A stretch of DNA of 39,179 nucleotides, taken from sequence record NC_049342.1. One strand, written 5' to 3'. Under the pieces are notes generated by a model. That model did not search any database. It had not been told where the DNA came from and saw only the letters and a program-made list of their open reading frames with translations. The translations under genes were made by a program, and so were the position numbers. The DNA is from Escherichia phage 500465-1. Positions 22,305-31,121 of this stretch are shown piece after piece; the first letter of the stretch is position 1; each line of letters begins with the position of its first letter.

Positions 22305-23477
22305 ATGGCTCAGGATTACCACCACGGGGTGCACGTTGTTGAAGTCAACGAAGGCACCCGATCTATTACCACGGTGAGCACCGCCATCGTGGGTATGGTC
22401 TGCACGGGCGATGATGCCGATGCAAAAATGTTTCCTCTTAATAAACCCGTGCTGATCACTGATGTGCTGACTGCCAGCGGTAAAGCGGGTGAGTCAGGTA
22501 CTCTGGCCCGTTCGCTGGATGCCATCGCTGACCAGGCAAAACCCGTGACCATTGTTGTGCGTGTGCCGCAGGGTGAAACGGAAGACGAAACCACGACCAA
22601 TATCATCGGCGCAGTGACTGCTGAAGGTAAAAAAACAGGTATGAAAGCCCTGTTATCTGCCCAGTCACAGCTCGGCGTTAAACCGCGCATTCTCGGCGTG
22701 CCAGGCCACGACACCAAGGCGGTAGCTACTGAGTTGCTGAGCGTGGCGCAAAGCCTGCGTGGATTTGCTTACCTGTCAGCGTATGGCTGCAAGACAGTGC
22801 AGGAGGCGATCACTTACCGCGAAAACTTCAGCCAGCGCGAAGGGATGCTGATCTGGCCTGACTTTACTGGCTGGGACACGGTGCTGAATGCCGAAGCAAC
22901 GGCATATGCCACCGCCCGTGCGCTTGGTCTGCGCGCCAAAATTGACGAGCAGACCGGATGGCACAAAAGCCTGTCCAACGTGGGCGTGAACGGTGTCACC
23001 GGAATTTCTGCAGATGTGTTCTGGGATCTGCAGGACCCGGCAACCGATGCAGGTCTGCTGAACCAGAACGACGTCACCACGCTTGTGCGTAAAGACGGTT
23101 TCCGCTTCTGGGGTTCCCGCTGCCTGAGTGATGACCCGCTCTTTGCCTTCGAAAACTACACCCGCACGGCGCAGGTGCTGATGGACACGATGGCAGAAGC
23201 ACACATGTGGGCGGTGGATAAACCGCTTAACCCGTCGCTGGCCCGCGACATTATCGAAGGTATCCGCGCCAAAATGCGCAGCCTGGTCAGTCAGGGCTAT
23301 CTCATTGGTGGTGATTGCTGGCTGGATGAGTCGGTGAACGACAAAGACACGCTGAAAGCCGGAAAACTCACCATCGACTACGACTACACGCCAGTGCCGC
23401 CACTTGAAAACCTGATGCTGCGTCAGCGCATCACCGATCAGTACCTGGTGAATTTCGCCAGCCAGGTCAGCGCGTAA
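22305..23477 (+). CDS. FI: Tail sheath protein, P2 gpFI homolog
   Basis: [49 protein letters not shown] matches FI. Confidence 0.9.
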
Positions 23478-23486
23478 GGGGACAAC

Positions 23487-24002
23487 ATGGCTTTACCACG
23501 CAAATTAAAACACCTGAACCTGTTTAACGACGGGAACAACTGGCAGGGGATCGTTGAGTCGCTGACGCTGCCGAAATTTACCCGCAAATATGAGAAGTAT
23601 CGCGGCGGCGGAATGCCGGGTGCGGTGGATGTGGAGCTGGGGCTTGATGACAGTGCGCTGGACACAGAATTTTCCATTGGTGGTACTGAATTGCTGCTGT
23701 TTAAACAGATGGGTAAAGCCACGGTGGATGGCATCCAGCTGCGCTTTACCGGCTCTATTCAGCGTGACGATACCGGGGAAGTGCAGGCCGTGGAGCTTGT
23801 CGTGCGTGGACGTCACAAAGAAGTGGATTCCGGCGAGTGGAAGACGGGCGAAAGCAACACCACCAAAGTGACCAGTACCAACAGCTACGCGAAGCTGACC
23901 ATCAATGGTGAGGTGCTCTATGAAGTGGACCTTATCAACATGGTGGAAATTGTGGACGGTGTGGACCTGATGGAAGCGCACCGCAACGCCCTCGGCCTCT
24001 GA
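23487..24002 (+). CDS. FII: Tail tube protein, P2 gpFII homolog
   Basis: 171 aa in the FII position; RBS AAGGGG. Confidence 0.85.
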   Translation: MALPRKLKHLNLFNDGNNWQGIVESLTLPKFTRKYEKYRGGGMPGAVDVELGLDDSALDTEFSIGGTELLLFKQMGKATVDGIQLRFTGSIQRDDTGEVQAVELVVRGRHKEVDSGEWKTGESNTTKVTSTNSYAKLTINGEVLYEVDLINMVEIVDGVDLMEAHRNALGL

Positions 24003-24056: not shown

Positions 24057-24359
24057 ATGAGCGATAAGCAGACTGAAAAGACCATTCAACTGGATACCCC
24101 CATCAAGCGCGGTAAAACAGAAATCACCGAAATTGTGCTGCGTAAACCGCAGTCCGGTGCGCTGCGCGGTACACGCCTGCAGGCCATTATGGATATGGAT
24201 GTAAACGCGATGATGACCGTGATCCCCCGCATCTCCAGTCCGGCACTGACTGCACAGGAAATTGCAGAGATGGACCCGGCAGATCTCACTGCCATGTCGG
24301 TTGAGGTTGTCACTTTTTTGTTGAAGAAGTCGGTGCTTGCCGGTTTACCGACAGCCTGA
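24057..24359 (+). CDS. E: Tail assembly chaperone, P2 gpE homolog
   Basis: 100 aa; slippery TTTTTTG near the 3' end. Confidence 0.8.
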   Translation: MSDKQTEKTIQLDTPIKRGKTEITEIVLRKPQSGALRGTRLQAIMDMDVNAMMTVIPRISSPALTAQEIAEMDPADLTAMSVEVVTFLLKKSVLAGLPTA

Positions 24360-24493
24360 CGGTTGACGATCTGGTGGCAGATATCGCCACCATTTTTCAC
24401 TGGCCGCCATCCGTTACTGACGTTATGCCGCTGACCGAAGTGCTGGAATGGCGGTATAAAGCGATTCAGAGAAGCGGGGCCAACGATGAGTGA
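24057..24493 (+). CDS. Tail assembly chaperone E+E' (programmed -1 frameshift product)
   Basis: -1 shift at TTTTTTG (24314-24320) gives ...ADIATIFHWPPSVTDVMPLTEVLEWRYKAIQRSGANDE, ending inside the T start. Confidence 0.65.
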
Positions 24494-27400
24494 TAACAAC
24501 CTGCGTCTGCAGGTCATTCTTAATGCGGTTGACAAGCTCACCCGCCCATTTCGATCTGCGCAGGCCAGTTCAAGAGAACTGGCTGCTGCTGTCAAAAAAT
24601 CCCGCGATGCAATAAAGCAGCTTGATCAGGCCGGGAGCAGTCTGGACAGCTTCCGAAAGCTGCAGGCAGAAAATCAGAAATTAGGCGACAGGCTGAACTA
24701 TGCCCGCCAGCGTGCAAATTTGCTCAGTCAGGAACTGGGAGCGATGGGGCCGCCTTCGCAACGTCAGGTTGTTGCTCTGGGCCGTCAACGGCTGGCTGTT
24801 CAGCGCCTGGAAGAACGCCAGAAAAAGCTGCAGCAGCAGACGGCGCTTGTGCGTGCTGAACTGTACCGGGCGGGAATTTCTGCGAAAGACGATGCGGGAG
24901 CAACTGCCCGTTTAGCCCGTGAAACATCACGTTATAACCAGGAACTTTCGAAACAGGAGGCGCGGCTGAAGCGACTGGGGGAAGCTCAGCGCAGGATGAA
25001 TGCAGCGCGTGCCAGTTATGCCCGTTCGCTGGAGGTGCGTGATCGTATTGCAGGTGCCGGAGCCACCACCACGGCTGCAGGGCTGGCAATGGGTGCGCCA
25101 GTGATGGCGGCAGTAAAAAGCTATACCAGCATGGAAGATGCCATGAAAGGTGTGGCAAAGCAGGTCAATGGTCTGCGTGACGATAATGGCAACCGCACTG
25201 CACGTTTTTATGAAATGCAGGATGCCATCAAGGCTGCCAGCGAACAGTTGCCGATGGAAAACGGTGCGGTGGACTTCGCTGCACTGGTTGAAGGTGGTGC
25301 GCGCATGAACGTCGCAAACCCTGACGACAGCTGGGAAGATCAGAAACGTGACCTGCTGGCCTTCGCCAGTACGGCAGCAAAGGCGGCAACAGCCTTTGAG
25401 CTGCCAGCGGATGAACTGTCAGAAAGTCTGGGGAAAATCGCCCAGCTCTACAAAATCCCCACCCGCAATATTGAACAGCTCGGTGATGCGCTGAACTATC
25501 TGGATGATAACGCCATGTCGAAAGGGGCAGACATCATTGATGTGATGCAACGTCTGGGCGGTGTGGCTGACCGTCTGGATTATCGTAAAGCGGCGGCGCT
25601 GGGTTCCACCTTCCTGACACTGGGCGCTGCGCCAGAGGTTGCAGCCAGTGCAGCAAACGCGATGGTGCGTGAATTGTCCATTGCCACCATGCAAAGCAAG
25701 AGTTTCTTTGAAGGGATGAATCTGCTGAAACTCAATCCTGAAGTGATTGAAAAGCAGATGACGAAGGATGCGATGGGAACCATCCAGCGCGTGCTGGAGA
25801 AGGTAAACGCGCTGCCGCAGGACAAGCGCCTGTCTGCCATGACTATGTTGTTTGGTAAAGAGTTTGGCGATGACGCGGCGAAACTGGCAAACAACCTGCC
25901 GGAACTGCAGCGTCAGTTAAAACTGACAGCGGGCAATGATGCGCTTGGCTCCATGCAGAAAGAATCCGACATTAACAAGGATTCACTTTCTGCGCAGTGG
26001 TTGCTGGTCAAAACCGGAGCGCAGAACACCTTCAGCAGCCTGGGCGAAACGCTGCGCCAGCCGCTGATGGATATTCTGTACACGGTGAAAAGCGTCACGG
26101 GGGCGTTGCGTCGCTGGGTGGAAGCTAACCCGGAACTGACAGGCACACTGATGAAAGCATCGGCTGTTGTGGCTGCGGTTACCGTCGGCCTCGGCACCTT
26201 AGCGGTGGCGCTGGCTGCAGTGCTGGGGCCGCTGGCAGTGATCCGTCTGGGATTCTCTGTGTTGGGTATCAAAACGTTATCTTCCGTTACGGCAGCAGTA
26301 ACTCGAACCAGCAGCGCGTTGTCCTGGCTGGCTGGCGCACCACTGGCACTGCTGCGACGCGGGCTTGCTTCATCGGGCAACGCCGCAGGTTTACTTACTG
26401 CGCCGTTGTCGTCTTTGCGCCGCACGGCATCACTGACGGGAAATGTCCTGAAAACTGTAGCAGGTGCGCCGGTTGCACTTTTGCGGTCTGGATTATCCGG
26501 TTTACGTGCTGTTGCTGTGATGTTTATGAATCCTCTGGCGGTACTGCGCGGTGGACTGGCCGCCGCAGGCACGGTGCTGCGAGTACTGGCATCTGGTCCA
26601 CTGGCGATGCTGCGCGTTGCCCTGTATGCCATATCTGGTCTGTTAGGTGCTCTGCTCAGTCCGATAGGTCTTGTGGTTACTGCACTGGCGGGCGTGGCGC
26701 TGGTTGTCTGGAAATACTGGCAACCCATCACCGCATTTCTCGGTGGCGTGGTGGAAGGATTCAAAGCGGCGGCAGGTCCCATCAGTGCAGCGTTCGAACC
26801 GCTTAAGCCCGTGTTCCAGTGGATTGGCGACAAAGTGCAGGCGCTGTGGGGCTGGTTTACTGATCTGCTGACGCCCGTTAAGTCGACCTCTGCCGAACTG
26901 CAGAGCGCAGCGGCAATGGGGCGGCGATTCGGGGAGGCACTGGCGGAAGGGCTGAATATGGTCATGCATCCGCTGGACTCCCTGAAATCCGGCGTTTCCT
27001 GGTTGCTGGAGAAGCTCGGCATTGTCAGTAAAGAGGCCGCAAAGGCAAAACTGCCGGAAAGCGTGACGCGTCAGCAACCTGCGACGGTGAATGCAGACGG
27101 TAAAGTGATGATGCCATCGGGTGGTTTTCCATCATGGGGATATGGCTTTGCGGGGATGTATGACAGCGGCGGGTATATCCCGCGCGGGCAGTTTGGCATC
27201 GTCGGTGAAAACGGGCCGGAAATTGTTAACGGCCCGGCAAATGTGACCAGCCGGAGAAATACAGCTGCACTGGCTGCCGTTGTTGCCGGAATGATGGGCG
27301 TTGCTGCCGCGCCAGCAGAGCTTCCACCGTTGCACCCCTTGGCACTTCCCGCGAAAGGTGGAGAAGCAATTGTGAGTCGCGCAGCCACTGTGCCACTCGT

Positions 27401-27563
27401 TCAACGGATTGAGGCACCGACGCAGATCATCATTCAGACGCAGCCAGGACAAAGTGCGCAGGATATTGCGCGGGAGGTGGCACGCCAACTTGATGAACGT
27501 GAACGCAGGCTGAAGGCAAAAGCCAGGAGTAACTACAGCGATCAGGGGGGATACGACGCATGA
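24486..27563 (+). CDS. T: Tail tape measure protein, P2 gpT homolog
   Basis: 1025 aa; coiled-coil N-terminal region, hydrophobic repeat core, position between E/E' and U. Confidence 0.85.
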   Translation: MSDNNLRLQVILNAVDKLTRPFRSAQASSRELAAAVKKSRDAIKQLDQAGSSLDSFRKLQAENQKLGDRLNYARQRANLLSQELGAMGPPSQRQVVALGRQRLAVQRLEERQKKLQQQTALVRAELYRAGISAKDDAGATARLARETSRYNQELSKQEARLKRLGEAQRRMNAARASYARSLEVRDRIAGAGATTTAAGLAMGAPVMAAVKSYTSMEDAMKGVAKQVNGLRDDNGNRTARFYEMQDAIKAASEQLPMENGAVDFAALVEGGARMNVANPDDSWEDQKRDLLAFASTAAKAATAFELPADELSESLGKIAQLYKIPTRNIEQLGDALNYLDDNAMSKGADIIDVMQRLGGVADRLDYRKAAALGSTFLTLGAAPEVAASAANAMVRELSIATMQSKSFFEGMNLLKLNPEVIEKQMTKDAMGTIQRVLEKVNALPQDKRLSAMTMLFGKEFGDDAAKLANNLPELQRQLKLTAGNDALGSMQKESDINKDSLSAQWLLVKTGAQNTFSSLGETLRQPLMDILYTVKSVTGALRRWVEANPELTGTLMKASAVVAAVTVGLGTLAVALAAVLGPLAVIRLGFSVLGIKTLSSVTAAVTRTSSALSWLAGAPLALLRRGLASSGNAAGLLTAPLSSLRRTASLTGNVLKTVAGAPVALLRSGLSGLRAVAVMFMNPLAVLRGGLAAAGTVLRVLASGPLAMLRVALYAISGLLGALLSPIGLVVTALAGVALVVWKYWQPITAFLGGVVEGFKAAAGPISAAFEPLKPVFQWIGDKVQALWGWFTDLLTPVKSTSAELQSAAAMGRRFGEALAEGLNMVMHPLDSLKSGVSWLLEKLGIVSKEAAKAKLPESVTRQQPATVNADGKVMMPSGGFPSWGYGFAGMYDSGGYIPRGQFGIVGENGPEIVNGPANVTSRRNTAALAAVVAGMMGVAAAPAELPPLHPLALPAKGGEAIVSRAATVPLVQRIEAPTQIIIQTQPGQSAQDIAREVARQLDERERRLKAKARSNYSDQGGYDA

Positions 27564-28045
27564 TGATGGTGCTGGGATTGTACGTGTTTATGCTGCGCAC
27601 CGTTCCGTATCAGGAACTGCAGTATCAACGCAGCTGGCGACATGCGGCAAACAGTCGGGTAAACCGACGTCCGTCCATGCAGTTTCTGGGACCGGAAAAC
27701 GACATGCTGACGCTTTCCGGTGTTCTTATGCCGGAAATAACAGGCGGCAGGCTGTCGTTGCTGGCACTGGAGCAGATGGCAGAACAGGGGAAAGCATGGC
27801 CCCTGATTGAAGGCAGCGGCACGATTTACGGCATGTATGTGATTGAGGGACTGAATCAGACTAAAACGGAGTTTTTCCGCGACGGTATGCCGCGCCGGAT
27901 TGAGTTCACCCTGTCGCTCAAACGAGTGGATGAATCCCTGTCCGATATGTTCGGTGATCTCAGTGCGCAACTGAATAATCTGCAGGACACGGCAACGTCT
28001 GCCTTAAGCGATATCAGTAAAACGGTGGGAGGGCTGCTGTCGTGA
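27560..28045 (+). CDS. U: Tail protein, P2 gpU homolog
   Basis: 161 aa in the gpU position. Confidence 0.8.
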   Translation: MMMVLGLYVFMLRTVPYQELQYQRSWRHAANSRVNRRPSMQFLGPENDMLTLSGVLMPEITGGRLSLLALEQMAEQGKAWPLIEGSGTIYGMYVIEGLNQTKTEFFRDGMPRRIEFTLSLKRVDESLSDMFGDLSAQLNNLQDTATSALSDISKTVGGLLS

Positions 28046-29142
28046 ATTTCAGCTCTGAACTGCTTAACAAAGGCAACAAAACTCCCGCATTCAGCATCAG
28101 TATTGAGGGCAGGGATATCACCACTGTGCTGGATAACCGCCTGATGAGTTTGACGCTGACGGATAACCGGGGCTTTGAAGCGGACCAGCTTGATCTGGAG
28201 CTGGATGACGCTGACGGAAAAATCGTGCTGCCGCGCCGTGGTGCGGTTATTACGCTGGCGCTGGGCTGGAAGGGGCAGCCGCTTTTCCCGAAAGGGGCAT
28301 TCACAGTGGACGAGATTGAACACACTGGCGCACCGGACCGCCTGACTATCCGGGCGCGAAGTGCTGATTTTCGGGAAACGCTGAATACCCGCCGTGAAAA
28401 ATCGTGGCATAAGACCACCGTCGGGGAAGTGGTGAAGGAAATAGCCGCGCGGCACAAGCTGAAGATGGCCCTGGGTAAAGACCTGTCGGATAAGCCCGTG
28501 GAGCATATAGACCAGACTAATGAGAGTGACGGCAGTTTTCTGATGCGGCTGGCGCGACAGTACGGTGCCATCGCGTCGGTGAAAAATGGCAATCTGTTAT
28601 TCATCCGGCAGGGGCAGGGCAAAAGCGCCACTGGTAAACCTCTGCCAGTGATCACTATCACACGCAAGGACGGCGACAGTCACCGATTTACCCTGGCAGA
28701 TCGCGGAGCCTACACGGGCGTAATTGCCAGCTGGTTGCATACCCGCGAACCTGCGAAGAAAGAAAGCACCACGGTGAAGCGTAAGCGCAGAACTAAGAAG
28801 CAGAAGAAAGAGCCGGAAGCGAAGCAGGGCGATTACCTGGTGGGTACGGATGAAAACGTGCTGGTACTTAATCGCACTTATGCCAACCGGAGCAACGCTG
28901 AACGGGCAGCGAAAATGCAGTGGGAACGCCTGCAACGCGGCGTTGCGTCATTCTCGCTACAACTGGCGGAAGGGCGGGCAGATCTTTACACGGAAATGCC
29001 AGTGAAAGTTAGTGGCTTTAAACAACCGATAGATGATGCGGAATGGACCATTACGACTCTGACTCATACCGTCAGCCCGGATAATGGTTTTACGACCAGT
29101 ATTGAACTCGAAGTGAAGATTGATGATCTTGAAATGGAATAA
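28042..29142 (+). CDS. D: Tail protein / late control protein, P2 gpD homolog
   Basis: 366 aa in the gpD position; GTG start. Confidence 0.8.
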   Translation: MNFSSELLNKGNKTPAFSISIEGRDITTVLDNRLMSLTLTDNRGFEADQLDLELDDADGKIVLPRRGAVITLALGWKGQPLFPKGAFTVDEIEHTGAPDRLTIRARSADFRETLNTRREKSWHKTTVGEVVKEIAARHKLKMALGKDLSDKPVEHIDQTNESDGSFLMRLARQYGAIASVKNGNLLFIRQGQGKSATGKPLPVITITRKDGDSHRFTLADRGAYTGVIASWLHTREPAKKESTTVKRKRRTKKQKKEPEAKQGDYLVGTDENVLVLNRTYANRSNAERAAKMQWERLQRGVASFSLQLAEGRADLYTEMPVKVSGFKQPIDDAEWTITTLTHTVSPDNGFTTSIELEVKIDDLEME

Positions 29143-29436: not shown

Positions 29437-29460
29437 AACCTGCTACGGCAGGTTTTTATT
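29437..29460. terminator. Rho-independent terminator between ogr and the convergent WYL/BRCT gene
   Basis: AACCTGC-TACG-GCAGGTT followed by TTTATT. Confidence 0.55.
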
Positions 29461-29938
29461 CATCTGGGATCTCACCCGTTTCAAGAAAATGTATAAAGCC
29501 AGGCTCATCTATGATGATTGTGCCTTTCATCCTGGCTGCCGATACTTTTGATGGGCCTGCATTGTAACCGCAACAGAGCATCTGAAGGCTTTGGGTTACA
29601 GAGGTTCTTACCGTTAATCCTTGTTCATTCGCCTTATCAACCAATCTTTCTTTATCTGCTTTTTTAAATCCGGTGAAACACACATCGAATGTATTTTTTT
29701 TCGGACCAGACTGCTTAGTGAGATGTGAGTATTTTTCGGGGAGGAATGACGCGCATTCCTGAATGGCTTGTTCTGGTGAATCGTACTGTTTAAGAATGCG
29801 GTCTTTTCGGAAGGTTTTTATTCGATCGGTGTTCTTACAAATGCCCTGTATATGATTTTCGCTATAACTGATGCTCTGTATTGAGTGAACTCCGATACGA
29901 CCATTTGCATTGATGTAAACAAAGTGAAGTTCTTCCAT
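29456..29938 (-). CDS. Small WYL-like plus BRCT-like domain protein (160 aa), function unknown
   Basis: RBS AAGAGG; N-terminal half with TFRKDRI motif (WYL-like), C-terminal half VCFTGF...GTIIIDEPGFIHF (BRCT-like). Confidence 0.6.
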   Translation of the reverse strand: MEELHFVYINANGRIGVHSIQSISYSENHIQGICKNTDRIKTFRKDRILKQYDSPEQAIQECASFLPEKYSHLTKQSGPKKNTFDVCFTGFKKADKERLVDKANEQGLTVRTSVTQSLQMLCCGYNAGPSKVSAARMKGTIIIDEPGFIHFLETGEIPDE

Positions 29939-30061: not shown

Positions 30062-30424
30062 TGGTGGAGCTGGCGGGAGTTGAACCCGCGTCCGAAATTC
30101 CTACATCCTCGGTACTACATGCTTAGTCAGTCTTTACATTCGCTTGCCAGCTGCGGACGGACACGCCACTAACAAACTAGCCTGATTAAGTTTTAACGCT
30201 TCAACCCCAGGCAGGGCTTCCACGCGATCTCTTTTGGGTTTGACCTCTCTTGATCCCCGTCCTAAGAGCGGAGGCTAGGGAGAGAGGGCTCTAAGCAGGT
30301 TATTAAGCTGCTAAAGCGTAGTTTTCGTCGTTTGCGACTATTTTTTGCGGCTTTTTACGAGGCCAACCGCCCCTCGGCATGCACCTTGGGTTTCGCAAAT
30401 CCCGTCGAATCCAGAATCAGCCCC
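30062..30424 (-). ncRNA. ssrA: tmRNA (SsrA)
   Basis: Reverse complement reads GGGGCTGATTCTGGATTCGACGGG...GGGTTCAACTCCCGCCAGCTCCACCA, the E. coli tmRNA. Confidence 0.95.
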
Positions 30425-30638: not shown

Positions 30639-31121
30639 TTAACGGTGGGCGTTTTTCATGATACGTGCTTTATCCACCTGCCATTCGCGTTCTTTGATAT
30701 CTGAACGTTTATCGTGCTGTTTTTTACCTTTGGCGACGCCGATTTTCACTTTGCACCAGGCATTTTTCCAGTACAGGGAGAGCGCCACTACGGTATAGCC
30801 TTCTCGATTGACGCGACCGTACAATGAGTCCAGTTCGCGCTGGTTGAGAAGTAACTTGCGGGTACGGGTAGGATCGCACACCACATGCGTGGAGGCCACG
30901 GCCATTGGCGTGATGTTAGCGCCAAACAGAAATGCCTCTCCGTCACGCAGAAGGACGTAGCTGTCGCTGATATTGGCTTTTCCTGCGCGCAGGGATTTAA
31001 CCTCCCAGCCTTGCAGGGCAAGTCCCGCTTCGAACTCTTCTTCGATAAAGTATTCGTGACGGGCGCGCTTGTTAAGCGCGATGGTCGCTGAACCAGGTTT
31101 ATGTGCTTTTTTCTTCGTCAT
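30639..31121 (-). CDS. smpB: SsrA-binding protein SmpB
   Basis: 160 aa, near-identical to E. coli SmpB. Confidence 0.95.

Follow-up and report, generated by a model that had tools for sequence, protein, structure and literature searches.

The closest described counterparts of the repeat analysed here are the arrays with aromatic markers in the tape measure proteins of siphophages (TP901-1, Staphylococcus phages and mycobacteriophages), which are built of 11- or 18-aa units marked by W or F (Belcaid et al. 2011, PMC3271669; Mahony et al. 2016, PMC5099701). In TP901-1, the tail shortens in proportion to the length deleted from either the repeat region or a hydrophobic region, and helical periodicity outweighs the nature of the side chains (PMC5099701). 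Among myoviruses, a 2026 survey found most tape measure proteins to be without a detectable tandem repeat (PMC13585406). For P2, the tail of which consists of 32 sheath rings of 39.5 Å each, a pore formed by the tape measure protein has been proposed (bioRxiv 10.64898/2026.09.14.750843). The window studied, i.e. the whole 39,179-nucleotide stretch of Escherichia phage 500465-1 (NC_049342.1), encodes a tape measure protein of this contractile-tail, P2-like type, the central part of which contains six or seven units of 21–22 residues. All features given below with coordinates lie on the + strand, and nucleotide positions are those of the window.

The protein is specified by gene T (24486..27563; 1025 aa). 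Residues 246–457 match the Pfam family PF10145 (PhageMin_Tail; E = 2e-18), with a score of 67.4 bits (curated cut-off 33.2), which places T in that family; PHROG 28 (phrog_28, 'tail length tape measure protein') matches residues 1–1024 (E = 2e-197). The gene is 100% identical at the nucleotide level to one of E. coli 503440 (NZ_CP025881.1), where it is annotated as 'phage tail tape measure protein'; it is common, with matches in 1089 complete E. coli genomes (about one in five), and is already annotated. The protein is long and, by prediction, mostly α-helical, with internal hydrophobic segments. The tail cluster has the order FI, FII, E, E′, T, U, D and ogr, with the tmRNA gene and smpB thereafter, so that T occupies the position of a P2-type gpT (sheath, tube, PF10109 chaperone, T, PF06995 GpU, PF05954 GpD, Ogr). 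The gene for the tail assembly chaperone gpE (24057..24359; PF10109), the product of which is presumed to be the assembly partner of T, contains the slippery site TTTTTTG for E+E′ (24314–24320); in the near-identical locus L005, a PF06528 GpE ORF that overlaps the start of T corresponds to the GpE′ ORF. The host element is a Fels-2/SopEPhi-like (Felsduovirus-type) E. coli prophage of the P2 family, integrated at ssrA.

A reading made from the sequence alone had proposed hydrophobic repeats of roughly 20 residues in T. The four motif strings that it quoted were all found in the protein (AGAPLALLRRGL at aa 616, AGAPVALLRSGL at aa 659, NPLAVLRGGL at aa 682 and SGPLAMLRVAL at aa 703), but a further copy between the first two of them, TAPLSSLRRTA (aa 638), had been overlooked. 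The approximate period was also borne out, since the motifs are spaced by 21 or 22 aa and self-similarity exceeded that of all shuffled sequences (see below). The prolines of the P-L-x-x-L-R motif lie at residues 619, 640, 662, 683, 705 and 726, with gaps of 21, 22, 21, 22 and 21 aa; this alternation generates a super-period of 43 aa, two units making up one super-unit. A longer, degenerate copy occurs at Pro 582 and an isolated one at Pro 829. Because copies run from Pro 582 through 726, the array extends over about nt 26229–26723; the location first proposed, 26320–26640, is inside it but too narrow. Each unit starts with P-L-x-x-L-R, followed by small or hydrophobic residues and one or two further basic ones, and P, L, L, R and G were the only anchors kept among the array positions in alignment A1.

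Placed by motif and register, the degenerate 37-aa copy U0 (aa 582–618; 26229..26339; GPLAVIRLGF...) is followed by U1 (aa 619–639; 26340..26402; PLALLRRGLASSGNAAGLLTA), U2 (aa 640–661; 26403..26468; PLSSLRRTASLTGNVLKTVAGA), which is the copy missing from the sequence-only reading, and U3 (aa 662–682; 26469..26531; PVALLRSGLSGLRAVAVMFMN). The next unit, U4 (aa 683–704; 26532..26597; PLAVLRGGLAAAGTVLRVLASG), measures 66 bp. U5 (aa 705–725; 26598..26660; PLAMLRVALYAISGLLGALLS) is kept in SopEPhi and opens the second of two membrane-like segments, and U6 (aa 726–746; 26661..26723; PIGLVVTALAGVALVVWKYWQ) is the degenerate final copy. U6 terminates in W-K-Y-W-Q-P-I, a motif common to the whole family and nearly invariant in alignment A1. 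The region of this motif aligns to the tape measure chains of PDB entries 8kea and 9j1k; these two matches of the PDB sequence search were marginal (E = 0.004 and 0.18) and did not cover the array. The isolated copy found by motif scan, HPLDSLKSG (aa 828–836; 26967..26993), sits 124 aa past the proline of U5 (aa 705), and this distance between the last arrayed motif match and the isolated copy is preserved in most length variants.

A helix rich in Leu, Ala, Gly and Arg might look repetitive through biased composition, with no common origin of its units. The region is indeed of low complexity, five residues (L, A, V, G and S) accounting for 70% of aa 582–746, and the DNA identity among units is low (24–54%); Tandem Repeats Finder detected no DNA-level repeat in gene T, the units being too diverged, and recurrence in the DNA is limited to a 17-nt imperfect direct repeat formed by the P-L-A-x-L-R codons. 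However, when aa 556–770 were compared with 2000 composition-preserving shuffles, none of the latter reached the observed values in any of three statistics: the best pair of 12-mers scored 48 (shuffle maximum 42), thirteen offsets scored at least 25 (shuffle maximum 10), and the mean BLOSUM62 score at offset 43 was 0.74 (−0.05 ± 0.08 in shuffles). The spacing of 21/22 aa is moreover regular, and among natural alleles the differences amount to exact units, the breakpoints lying inside the motif. The repeat array of T is thus statistically real. Its origin as a compositional artefact, refuted by the shuffle test, the four-unit gap in SopEPhi and the 66-bp unit alleles, retains next to no credibility. 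As the DNA identity between units is just 24–54%, the array is an old, diverged tandem array.

Comparison of repeat number with related prophages, as the sequence-only reading had suggested, showed that this number varies, both in SopEPhi and among near-identical homologues. The T protein of Salmonella phage SopEPhi (Felsduovirus; 935 aa) is 68% identical to T across its full length and lacks four core units: an 86-aa stretch (aa 609–694; 26310..26567; four units, or 2 × 43 aa) is missing, and this is the sole gap of at least six residues in the global alignment. The array therefore explains essentially the entire difference in length between the two proteins. Both SopEPhi T and the gpT proteins of P2 and L-413C (Peduovirus) are, like T, homologous tape measure proteins encoded in the same gene order, and share with it the first hydrophobic segment, GPLAVIR, U5/U6 and the downstream W-K-Y-W-Q-P-I region. 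T had also been thought to be longer than P2 gpT, and it is (1025 aa versus 815 aa in Yersinia phage L-413C, the gpT of which is P2-type), but the array region accounts for no more than about 89 of the 210 additional residues, the others being near the C-terminus and elsewhere. In L-413C gpT the motif chain is entirely absent. It was likewise absent from all 106 full-length-like (≥700 aa) representatives of 50%-identity clusters, save for one fragment identical to T, and HMMER alignments with distant relatives break near aa 600–700. By these comparisons the repeat is specific to the present T clade. The motif-chain scan was substituted for a search with a 22-column HMM made from five units, which recovered only T and the identical fragment (hmmsearch) and was too short and self-trained.

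In alignment A1 the mean identity was 71% in the array and 94% in the flanking cores, which makes the array the fastest-evolving stretch of the central and C-terminal protein. In a 1053-aa T type that is 88% identical, its place is taken by a segment of similar length that is acidic, rich in glycine and unrelated in sequence. Repeats of independent origin, with units of 18/36, 41, 50 or 52 aa, occupy the same central region in other P2-like tape measure proteins.

Among homologues 96–99.9% identical outside the gap, the changes found were the gain of one unit, the loss of one, three or 3.5 units, the gain of half a unit (+11 aa, in one homologue) and larger deletions; almost all fall within aa 541–817. 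A 988-aa homologue (P0012), 99.9% identical elsewhere, lacks U0 (aa 582–618) as a single block, and 999-aa homologues without U2 show a 22-aa gap at aa 642–663. Alignment of the DNA with loci L005 and L007 revealed reciprocal events at U4, the 66 bp of which are duplicated in 1047-aa alleles (the two copies differing by 1 nt) and deleted in 1003-aa alleles, with breakpoints in CTGGCG microhomologies at 26535–26540 and 26601–26606. Alleles of both lengths sit in intact tail clusters. Recombination or slippage involving pairs of the short conserved P-L-A-x-L-R codon blocks thus adds and removes units without disturbing the reading frame. Regarding allele frequency, the 1047-aa form was found on 24 contigs and the 961-aa form on five, while in complete E. 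coli genomes each of the 52 full-span matches sampled is 3078 nt long, the length of the 1025-aa form. BLAST searches with 90-nt junction queries, for which only single-piece top matches were used since counts at ≥80% coverage merge the two half-matches of the normal allele, gave the 1003-type junction as one uninterrupted match in a single complete E. coli genome among the matches listed, and no such match among them for the 1047-type junction. The size of cluster P0010 (1764 members) had suggested that the 1003-aa allele is common; this was rejected, the members being mostly 1025-aa proteins and even sheath proteins. The 1025-aa form is nearly fixed in nature, and for this reason the rare variants could be mildly defective alleles of decaying prophages instead of tuned tails.

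The hydropathy of the array showed a power peak at 3.58 aa (21.5/6), with z ∼11 at 3.6 aa and none of 2000 shuffles reaching it, and the phase lay between 230 and 299 degrees in all seven units, so that the hydrophobic stripe stays in register. A unit of 21–22 residues equals six α-helical turns, and a 3.58-aa period in constant phase is as expected for one continuous amphipathic helix. At the heptad period (3.50 residues) the power of the array was at background, unlike in a canonical heptad coiled coil; in the N-terminal 240 aa of T the peak was at 3.43–3.51. The core units U1–U4 (aa 619–704) contain no acidic residues and carry a net charge of +9. They lie between two membrane-like segments, the first of which (aa 555–596; 26148..26273; 19-residue Kyte–Doolittle mean ≥1.6, peak 2.38) overlaps U0, and the second of which covers aa 705–745. 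Only these flanks are hydrophobic enough to span a bilayer (19-residue mean ≥1.6, uncharged core); U1–U4 are not, with mean values of 0.26–1.22 and two or three Arg/Lys per unit. An AlphaFold2 model of full-length T, obtained from a shallow alignment of 27 sequences and used for gross helicity alone, was helical over nearly its whole length as far as aa 843, but with low confidence, the mean pLDDT being 41.9. Within the array the pLDDT was ∼30 and helix breaks did not match unit boundaries; given this low confidence, the picture of a continuous helix is drawn from the periodicity and not from the model.

The array is probably a sequence-tolerant, length-adding ruler module placed between the two membrane-like segments. 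We infer that the number of repeats sets tail length, as the sequence-only reading had supposed for tape measure proteins, from the experiments on lambda and TP901-1 (PMC5099701) and the geometry of P2 (bioRxiv 10.64898/2026.09.14.750843). Inside the tail tube, a single long amphipathic helix of the gpT bundle would run through the array, which would work as a largely sequence-tolerant spacer within the ruler; after ejection, the array would probably join, with its hydrophobic flanks, the membrane-spanning conduit proposed for the tape measure proteins of P2 and T4. With 815 residues of gpT spanning 32 rings, P2 gives ∼1.55 Å per residue. On this scale one unit would add ∼33 Å (0.8 ring) and the four extra units ∼130 Å (3.3 rings), and a 1025-aa T would predict ∼40 rings, versus 32, and a tail of ∼160 nm. 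Since a unit of ∼33 Å does not equal a ring of 39.5 Å, the number of rings may change when a single unit is gained or lost, but need not. Published tail lengths could not be used. Phage Cartapus (LF82) has never been viewed by electron microscopy. The one virion description of a phage with a near-identical T gene, that of Klebsiella phage KP12 (99.7% identity), gives ∼90 nm; taken at face value this contradicts the predicted ∼160 nm, but it was considered unreliable because the identical figure is quoted for an unrelated T4-like phage.

It is conceivable, if doubtful, that the array is mainly a module active at the membrane or in the periplasm, a role that may coexist with that of a ruler. After ejection, the cationic amphipathic units would associate with the inner membrane, at its surface or within it, or line a conduit from the tube tip to it, and copy number would tune this conduit and not tail length. 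The membrane-like segments at aa 555–596 and 705–745, the amphipathic nature of U1–U4 with their +9 charge and total lack of acidic residues, and the channel formed by the T4 tape measure protein (bioRxiv 10.64898/2026.03.06.709160) agree with this. Yet U1–U4, with the hydropathy and basic residues given above, are not transmembrane-like, and were the units membrane spans, changes of ±22 aa would flip the topology downstream, whereas the alleles carrying them sit in intact tail clusters. The related 1053-aa type has an acidic, hydrophilic segment here and SopEPhi almost nothing; a basic amphipathic character is therefore not required at this position. It is improbable, too, that the chaperones gpE and gpE+E′ dock at regular intervals along T on its P-L-x-x-L-R motifs. 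A comparable anchoring of chaperones has been proposed for the aromatic markers of siphophage tape measure proteins, and periodic docking would fit the conserved anchor residues at a fixed period, the gpE and E+E′ genes with their TTTTTTG directly upstream of T, and the link drawn between chaperone binding and those parts of tape measure proteins that are hydrophobic or repetitive (PMC3271669; PMC5099701). However, relatives with chaperone genes of the same type lack the array (SopEPhi) or have an unrelated replacement (1053-aa type), and swapping one TP901-1 repeat for alanines had little effect (PMC5099701).

It is unlikely that the array is a phase-preserving length vernier. Six-turn units would then let the gpT helix bundle lengthen or shorten without rotating the hydrophobic stripe of the flanks, the basic face would track the acidic lumen of the tube, and recombination at the P-L-A-x-L-R codons would offer the lineage a ready means of altering, in sub-ring steps, tail length or how far the periplasmic conduit formed after ejection extends; the arrays of 18/36, 41, 50 and 52 aa in other P2-like proteins would be the same device re-invented. 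If the ruler reading of T holds, its natural alleles (935, 961, 988, 1003, 1025 and 1047 aa) constitute a nearly isogenic contractile-tail series, which could show how steps of ∼33 Å become whole rings of 39.5 Å and whether the central hydrophobic/basic region counts in the ruler. Otherwise, the array is a routine instance of the internal duplications for which tape measure proteins are known.

The array is an ordinary length-variable module and not a new type of system. Like the siphophage repeats, it consists of tandem units that evolve by duplication and loss and adjoin hydrophobic regions; both hold to their period under loose constraint on the sequence, and in both, protein length changes with the number of units (as does, in TP901-1, tail length). 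Unlike them, it belongs to a protein of a contractile-tailed P2-like phage, its unit is 21/22 aa (43-aa super-unit) instead of 11 or 18, and its markers are Pro, Leu and Arg. Judged against the 11/18-aa aromatic pattern of Siponen, Belcaid and Mahony, U1–U5 have no conserved W or F, and the hydropathy power of the array at 10.75–11 aa was at background, with no 11-aa peak, a period of ∼10.75 aa being confined to the K/R positions. With T4 gp29 and the P2 protein, the proposed formers of inner-membrane channels, T shares a contractile-tail phage origin and a predicted membrane-like helical region in mid-protein. It differs from them in its repeat array, which has not been described for either, and the units of which are not themselves transmembrane-like.

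The repeats lie in gene T (24486-27563, plus strand), a single long open reading frame whose 1025-aa product matches PHROG 28 ('tail length tape measure protein') over its entire length (E = 2e-197) and the Pfam family PF10145 (phage minor tail / tape measure core) at aa 246-457 (E = 2e-18; residue numbers refer to T). The sequence-only reading had quoted four repeat strings and placed them at 26320-26640. All four were found in T, and the periodicity proved genuine: when aa 556-770 were shuffled 2000 times, keeping the composition, no shuffle matched the observed self-similarity, whether judged by the best 12-mer pair score (48; shuffle maximum 42), the number of high-scoring offsets (13; shuffle maximum 10) or the mean diagonal score at offset 43 (0.74 versus -0.05 ± 0.08). 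This offset, which corresponds to two units, gave the strongest self-similarity. Copy number and extent did require correction, since one further copy, between the first two strings, had been overlooked; the array occupies about nt 26229-26723. The prolines of the motif (P-L-x-x-L-R) are located at aa 619, 640, 662, 683, 705 and 726, in steps of 21, 22, 21, 22 and 21 aa; a longer copy of 37 aa begins at Pro 582, and an isolated copy at Pro 829. The seven units starting from Pro 582 to Pro 726 are referred to as U0 to U6, U1-U4 (aa 619-704) being the core units. At the DNA level, no tandem repeat was detectable in the gene: any two units are identical at 24-54% of nucleotides and at 2-10 of ~21 residues, and the sole recurring DNA is a 17-nt imperfect repeat formed by the P-L-A-x-L-R codons. 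The array is old.

A comparison of repeat number among relatives, as had been proposed, showed that the number does vary, and that this accounts for the difference between T and its counterpart in phage SopEPhi (935 aa, 68% identical, aligned end to end). The single gap of at least 6 residues between the two proteins covers 86 aa (T aa 609-694), exactly four units; SopEPhi T keeps U0 and U5/U6. No motif chain was found in the P2-type gpT of L-413C (815 aa) or in two other distant P2-like tape measure proteins, and only ~89 of the 210 residues by which T exceeds L-413C gpT fall in the array region. The 120 closest clusters in the database include length variants with 96-99.9% identity outside the gap; nearly all of these length changes fall within T aa 541-817. 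Homologues of 1047 and 1003 aa have 22 residues more and 22 fewer, respectively, while the 999-aa form lacks 22 residues from a different unit than the 1003-aa form; those of 988, 961 and 950 aa lack 37 (U0), 64 (three units) and 75 residues, and a 1036-aa homologue has gained 11, half a unit. Bigger deletions, of 28-169 aa, are also present. One stretch of 66 bp (26532-26597) is duplicated in the 1047-aa allele and deleted in the 1003-aa allele, which makes the two reciprocal; the breakpoints are inside a CTGGCG common to the starts of U4 and U5, and the duplicated copies differ at 1 nt. Both alleles reside within intact FI-FII-E-E'-T-U-D-ogr clusters, and contigs encoding the 1047-aa protein numbered 24 (five for the 961-aa protein). 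The 1003-aa form occurs in several sequence backgrounds with slightly differing junction residues (AMLRVAL, AVLRVAL, AVLRGAL), which fits, without proving, the idea that it may have arisen more than once. Some length changes lie elsewhere. One homologue (P0036) measures 1003 aa through another 22-aa deletion, at T aa 357-378 (~25554-25619), in the PF10145 core and not the array; the 1139-aa homologues (P0001, P0015-P0035) have 114 aa inserted towards the C-terminus (T aa ~895-929; ~27170-27270), outside the array; the 1107-aa homologues have an 84-aa C-terminal extension, and in P0009 (1186 aa) read-through has fused T to GpU.

Length variants of T are rare. In a sample spaced evenly along the ranked complete E. 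coli genomes, the gene measured exactly 3078 nt in 52 of 52 full-query matches. Of the top hits listed, only one complete genome showed the exact 1003-type junction as a single uninterrupted match, and none showed the 1047-type junction. A count of 1764 copies of the 1003-aa form in one database cluster was discarded, the cluster being mixed and made up mostly of 1025-aa proteins. Genes similar to T were present in 1089 of 5426 complete E. coli genomes, that of strain 503440 being 100% identical in DNA. The nearest named phages are Klebsiella phage 4LV2017, Escherichia phage Cartapus and Klebsiella phage KP12; Salmonella phage SopEPhi (genus Felsduovirus) is a more distant named relative. The neighbours of T are the genes for the sheath (22305-23477), the tube (23487-24002), the tail chaperone gpE (24057-24359; PF10109), GpU (27560-28045), GpD (28042-29142) and Ogr. 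A P2-type slippery TTTTTTG near the end of the gpE gene (24314-24320) is the expected site of the -1 frameshift that would yield gpE+E'; the E' frame overlaps the start of T. A tmRNA gene (30062-30424, minus strand) lies downstream, adjoining the right end of the prophage, with smpB (30639-31121, minus strand) beyond it, and the prophage, of the P2 family, is therefore integrated at ssrA. Between ogr and ssrA, a 160-aa minus-strand ORF (29456-29938), with a weak BRCT-like match under the Pfam cut-off, may be a cargo gene. In the near-identical E. coli loci encoding the 1047- and 1003-aa proteins (L005 and L007), a host Asp-Al_Ex transporter gene follows ogr in place of the ssrA-side arrangement; this type of phage therefore has two or more integration sites.

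A search of 1.84 billion 50%-identity representatives returned 5614 relatives at E <= 0.001. Among the best 150 of these, none of the 106 with at least 700 aa contained two or more motifs at unit spacing, save one fragment identical to T; HMMER alignments to these relatives usually end at ~aa 590-635 and restart at ~aa 693-723. Within the close family, mean identity was 71% in the array versus 94% in the cores on either side, and the residues retained in the array are the anchors P, L, L, R and G alone. A 1053-aa type of T common in E. coli (P0059-P0062, P0077-P0103), 88% identical overall, carries at aa ~590-700 an unrelated acidic, glycine-rich segment (e.g. ALSGGGDDDGGGILDAFRDG) instead of the basic array, and looks like the outcome of a mosaic cassette exchange within the gene. 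Other P2-like tape measure proteins have unrelated internal repeats in their central region. The segment flanked by the two hydrophobic stretches is thus a variable, expansion-prone cassette family-wide. The array itself is clade-specific; its unit-wise polymorphism is real, with breakpoints in the motif, and its sequence is loosely constrained while period and phase are strict. Distant tape measure representatives include P0244 (a near-perfect 50-aa unit present three times), P0141 (GGFSGL units, 18/36 aa), P0238 and P0232 (41- and 52-aa units including a W-x-x-I motif), P0256 (38-aa repeats in the C-terminal part) and P0171, also with independent internal repeats.

Hydropathy analysis showed membrane-like segments at aa 555-596 and aa 705-745 flanking the core units, which are amphipathic, only moderately hydrophobic, devoid of Asp and Glu, and carry a total charge of +9 (net charge of aa 582-746, +14). 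Fourier analysis of hydropathy over aa 600-746 gave a sharp peak at 3.58 residues (z ~11 at 3.6 aa; 0 of 2000 shuffles), that is 21.5/6, or 43/12, and the hydrophobic moment keeps one phase (230-299 degrees) across all seven units. Most simply, the array would form a single long amphipathic helix, with its hydrophobic stripe in the same orientation in successive units. The AlphaFold2 model supports helicity alone and, at low confidence in the array region (pLDDT ~30), was not relied upon; its only confident helices are at aa ~30-170 (pLDDT 70-90). In the N-terminal quarter of T (aa 1-240; 24486-25200), hydropathy follows a heptad-like period of 3.43-3.51 aa; like the array, this quarter is fast-evolving (mean identity 74%).

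Tails of TP901-1 become shorter, by an amount proportional to the number of residues deleted, when either the repeat region or a hydrophobic region carries a deletion; alanine replacement of a repeat is tolerated (PMC5099701). The tail of P2 is reported to have 192 sheath subunits, forming 32 rings with a rise of 39.5 Å, and helical-bundle tape measure density in its lumen (2026 preprint, bioRxiv 10.64898/2026.09.14.750843). Taking L-413C gpT (815 aa) as a proxy for P2 gpT, these rings give a scale of ~1.55 Å per residue, on which one unit would span ~33 Å (0.8 ring), four extra units ~130 Å (3.3 rings), and the 1025-aa T would be predicted to specify ~40 rings. From the TP901-1 deletions and the P2 ring geometry, we infer that the array serves as a sequence-tolerant spacer in the tail ruler. 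The sequence-only reading, that repeat number can set tail length, is partly supported. The array may contribute as well to a post-ejection conduit through the inner membrane, as proposed for the tape measure proteins of P2 (bioRxiv 10.64898/2026.09.14.750843) and T4 (bioRxiv 10.64898/2026.03.06.709160); a strict membrane-span role, however, is disfavoured since the units are not transmembrane-like, changes of one unit are tolerated, and the array is absent or replaced in relatives. The units may instead be docking sites for a chaperone, a less likely reading.

The array is an ordinary feature of a known, very common protein. No earlier description of this particular repeat was found in the open-access literature. 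The length variants have a modest value as a set of natural alleles with which to study how a contractile-tail phage determines its tail length. A 2026 survey reported tandem repeats to be mostly absent from myovirus tape measure proteins (PMC13585406); a diverged array like that of T was probably below its detection limit. The tape measure proteins of siphophages contain tandem units of 11 or 18 aa, marked by Trp/Phe, which evolve by duplication and loss (PMC3271669; PMC5099701). The array of T differs from these units in its period and in lacking both the aromatic marker and the 11-aa hydropathy peak, but, like them, it would work in the same manner.
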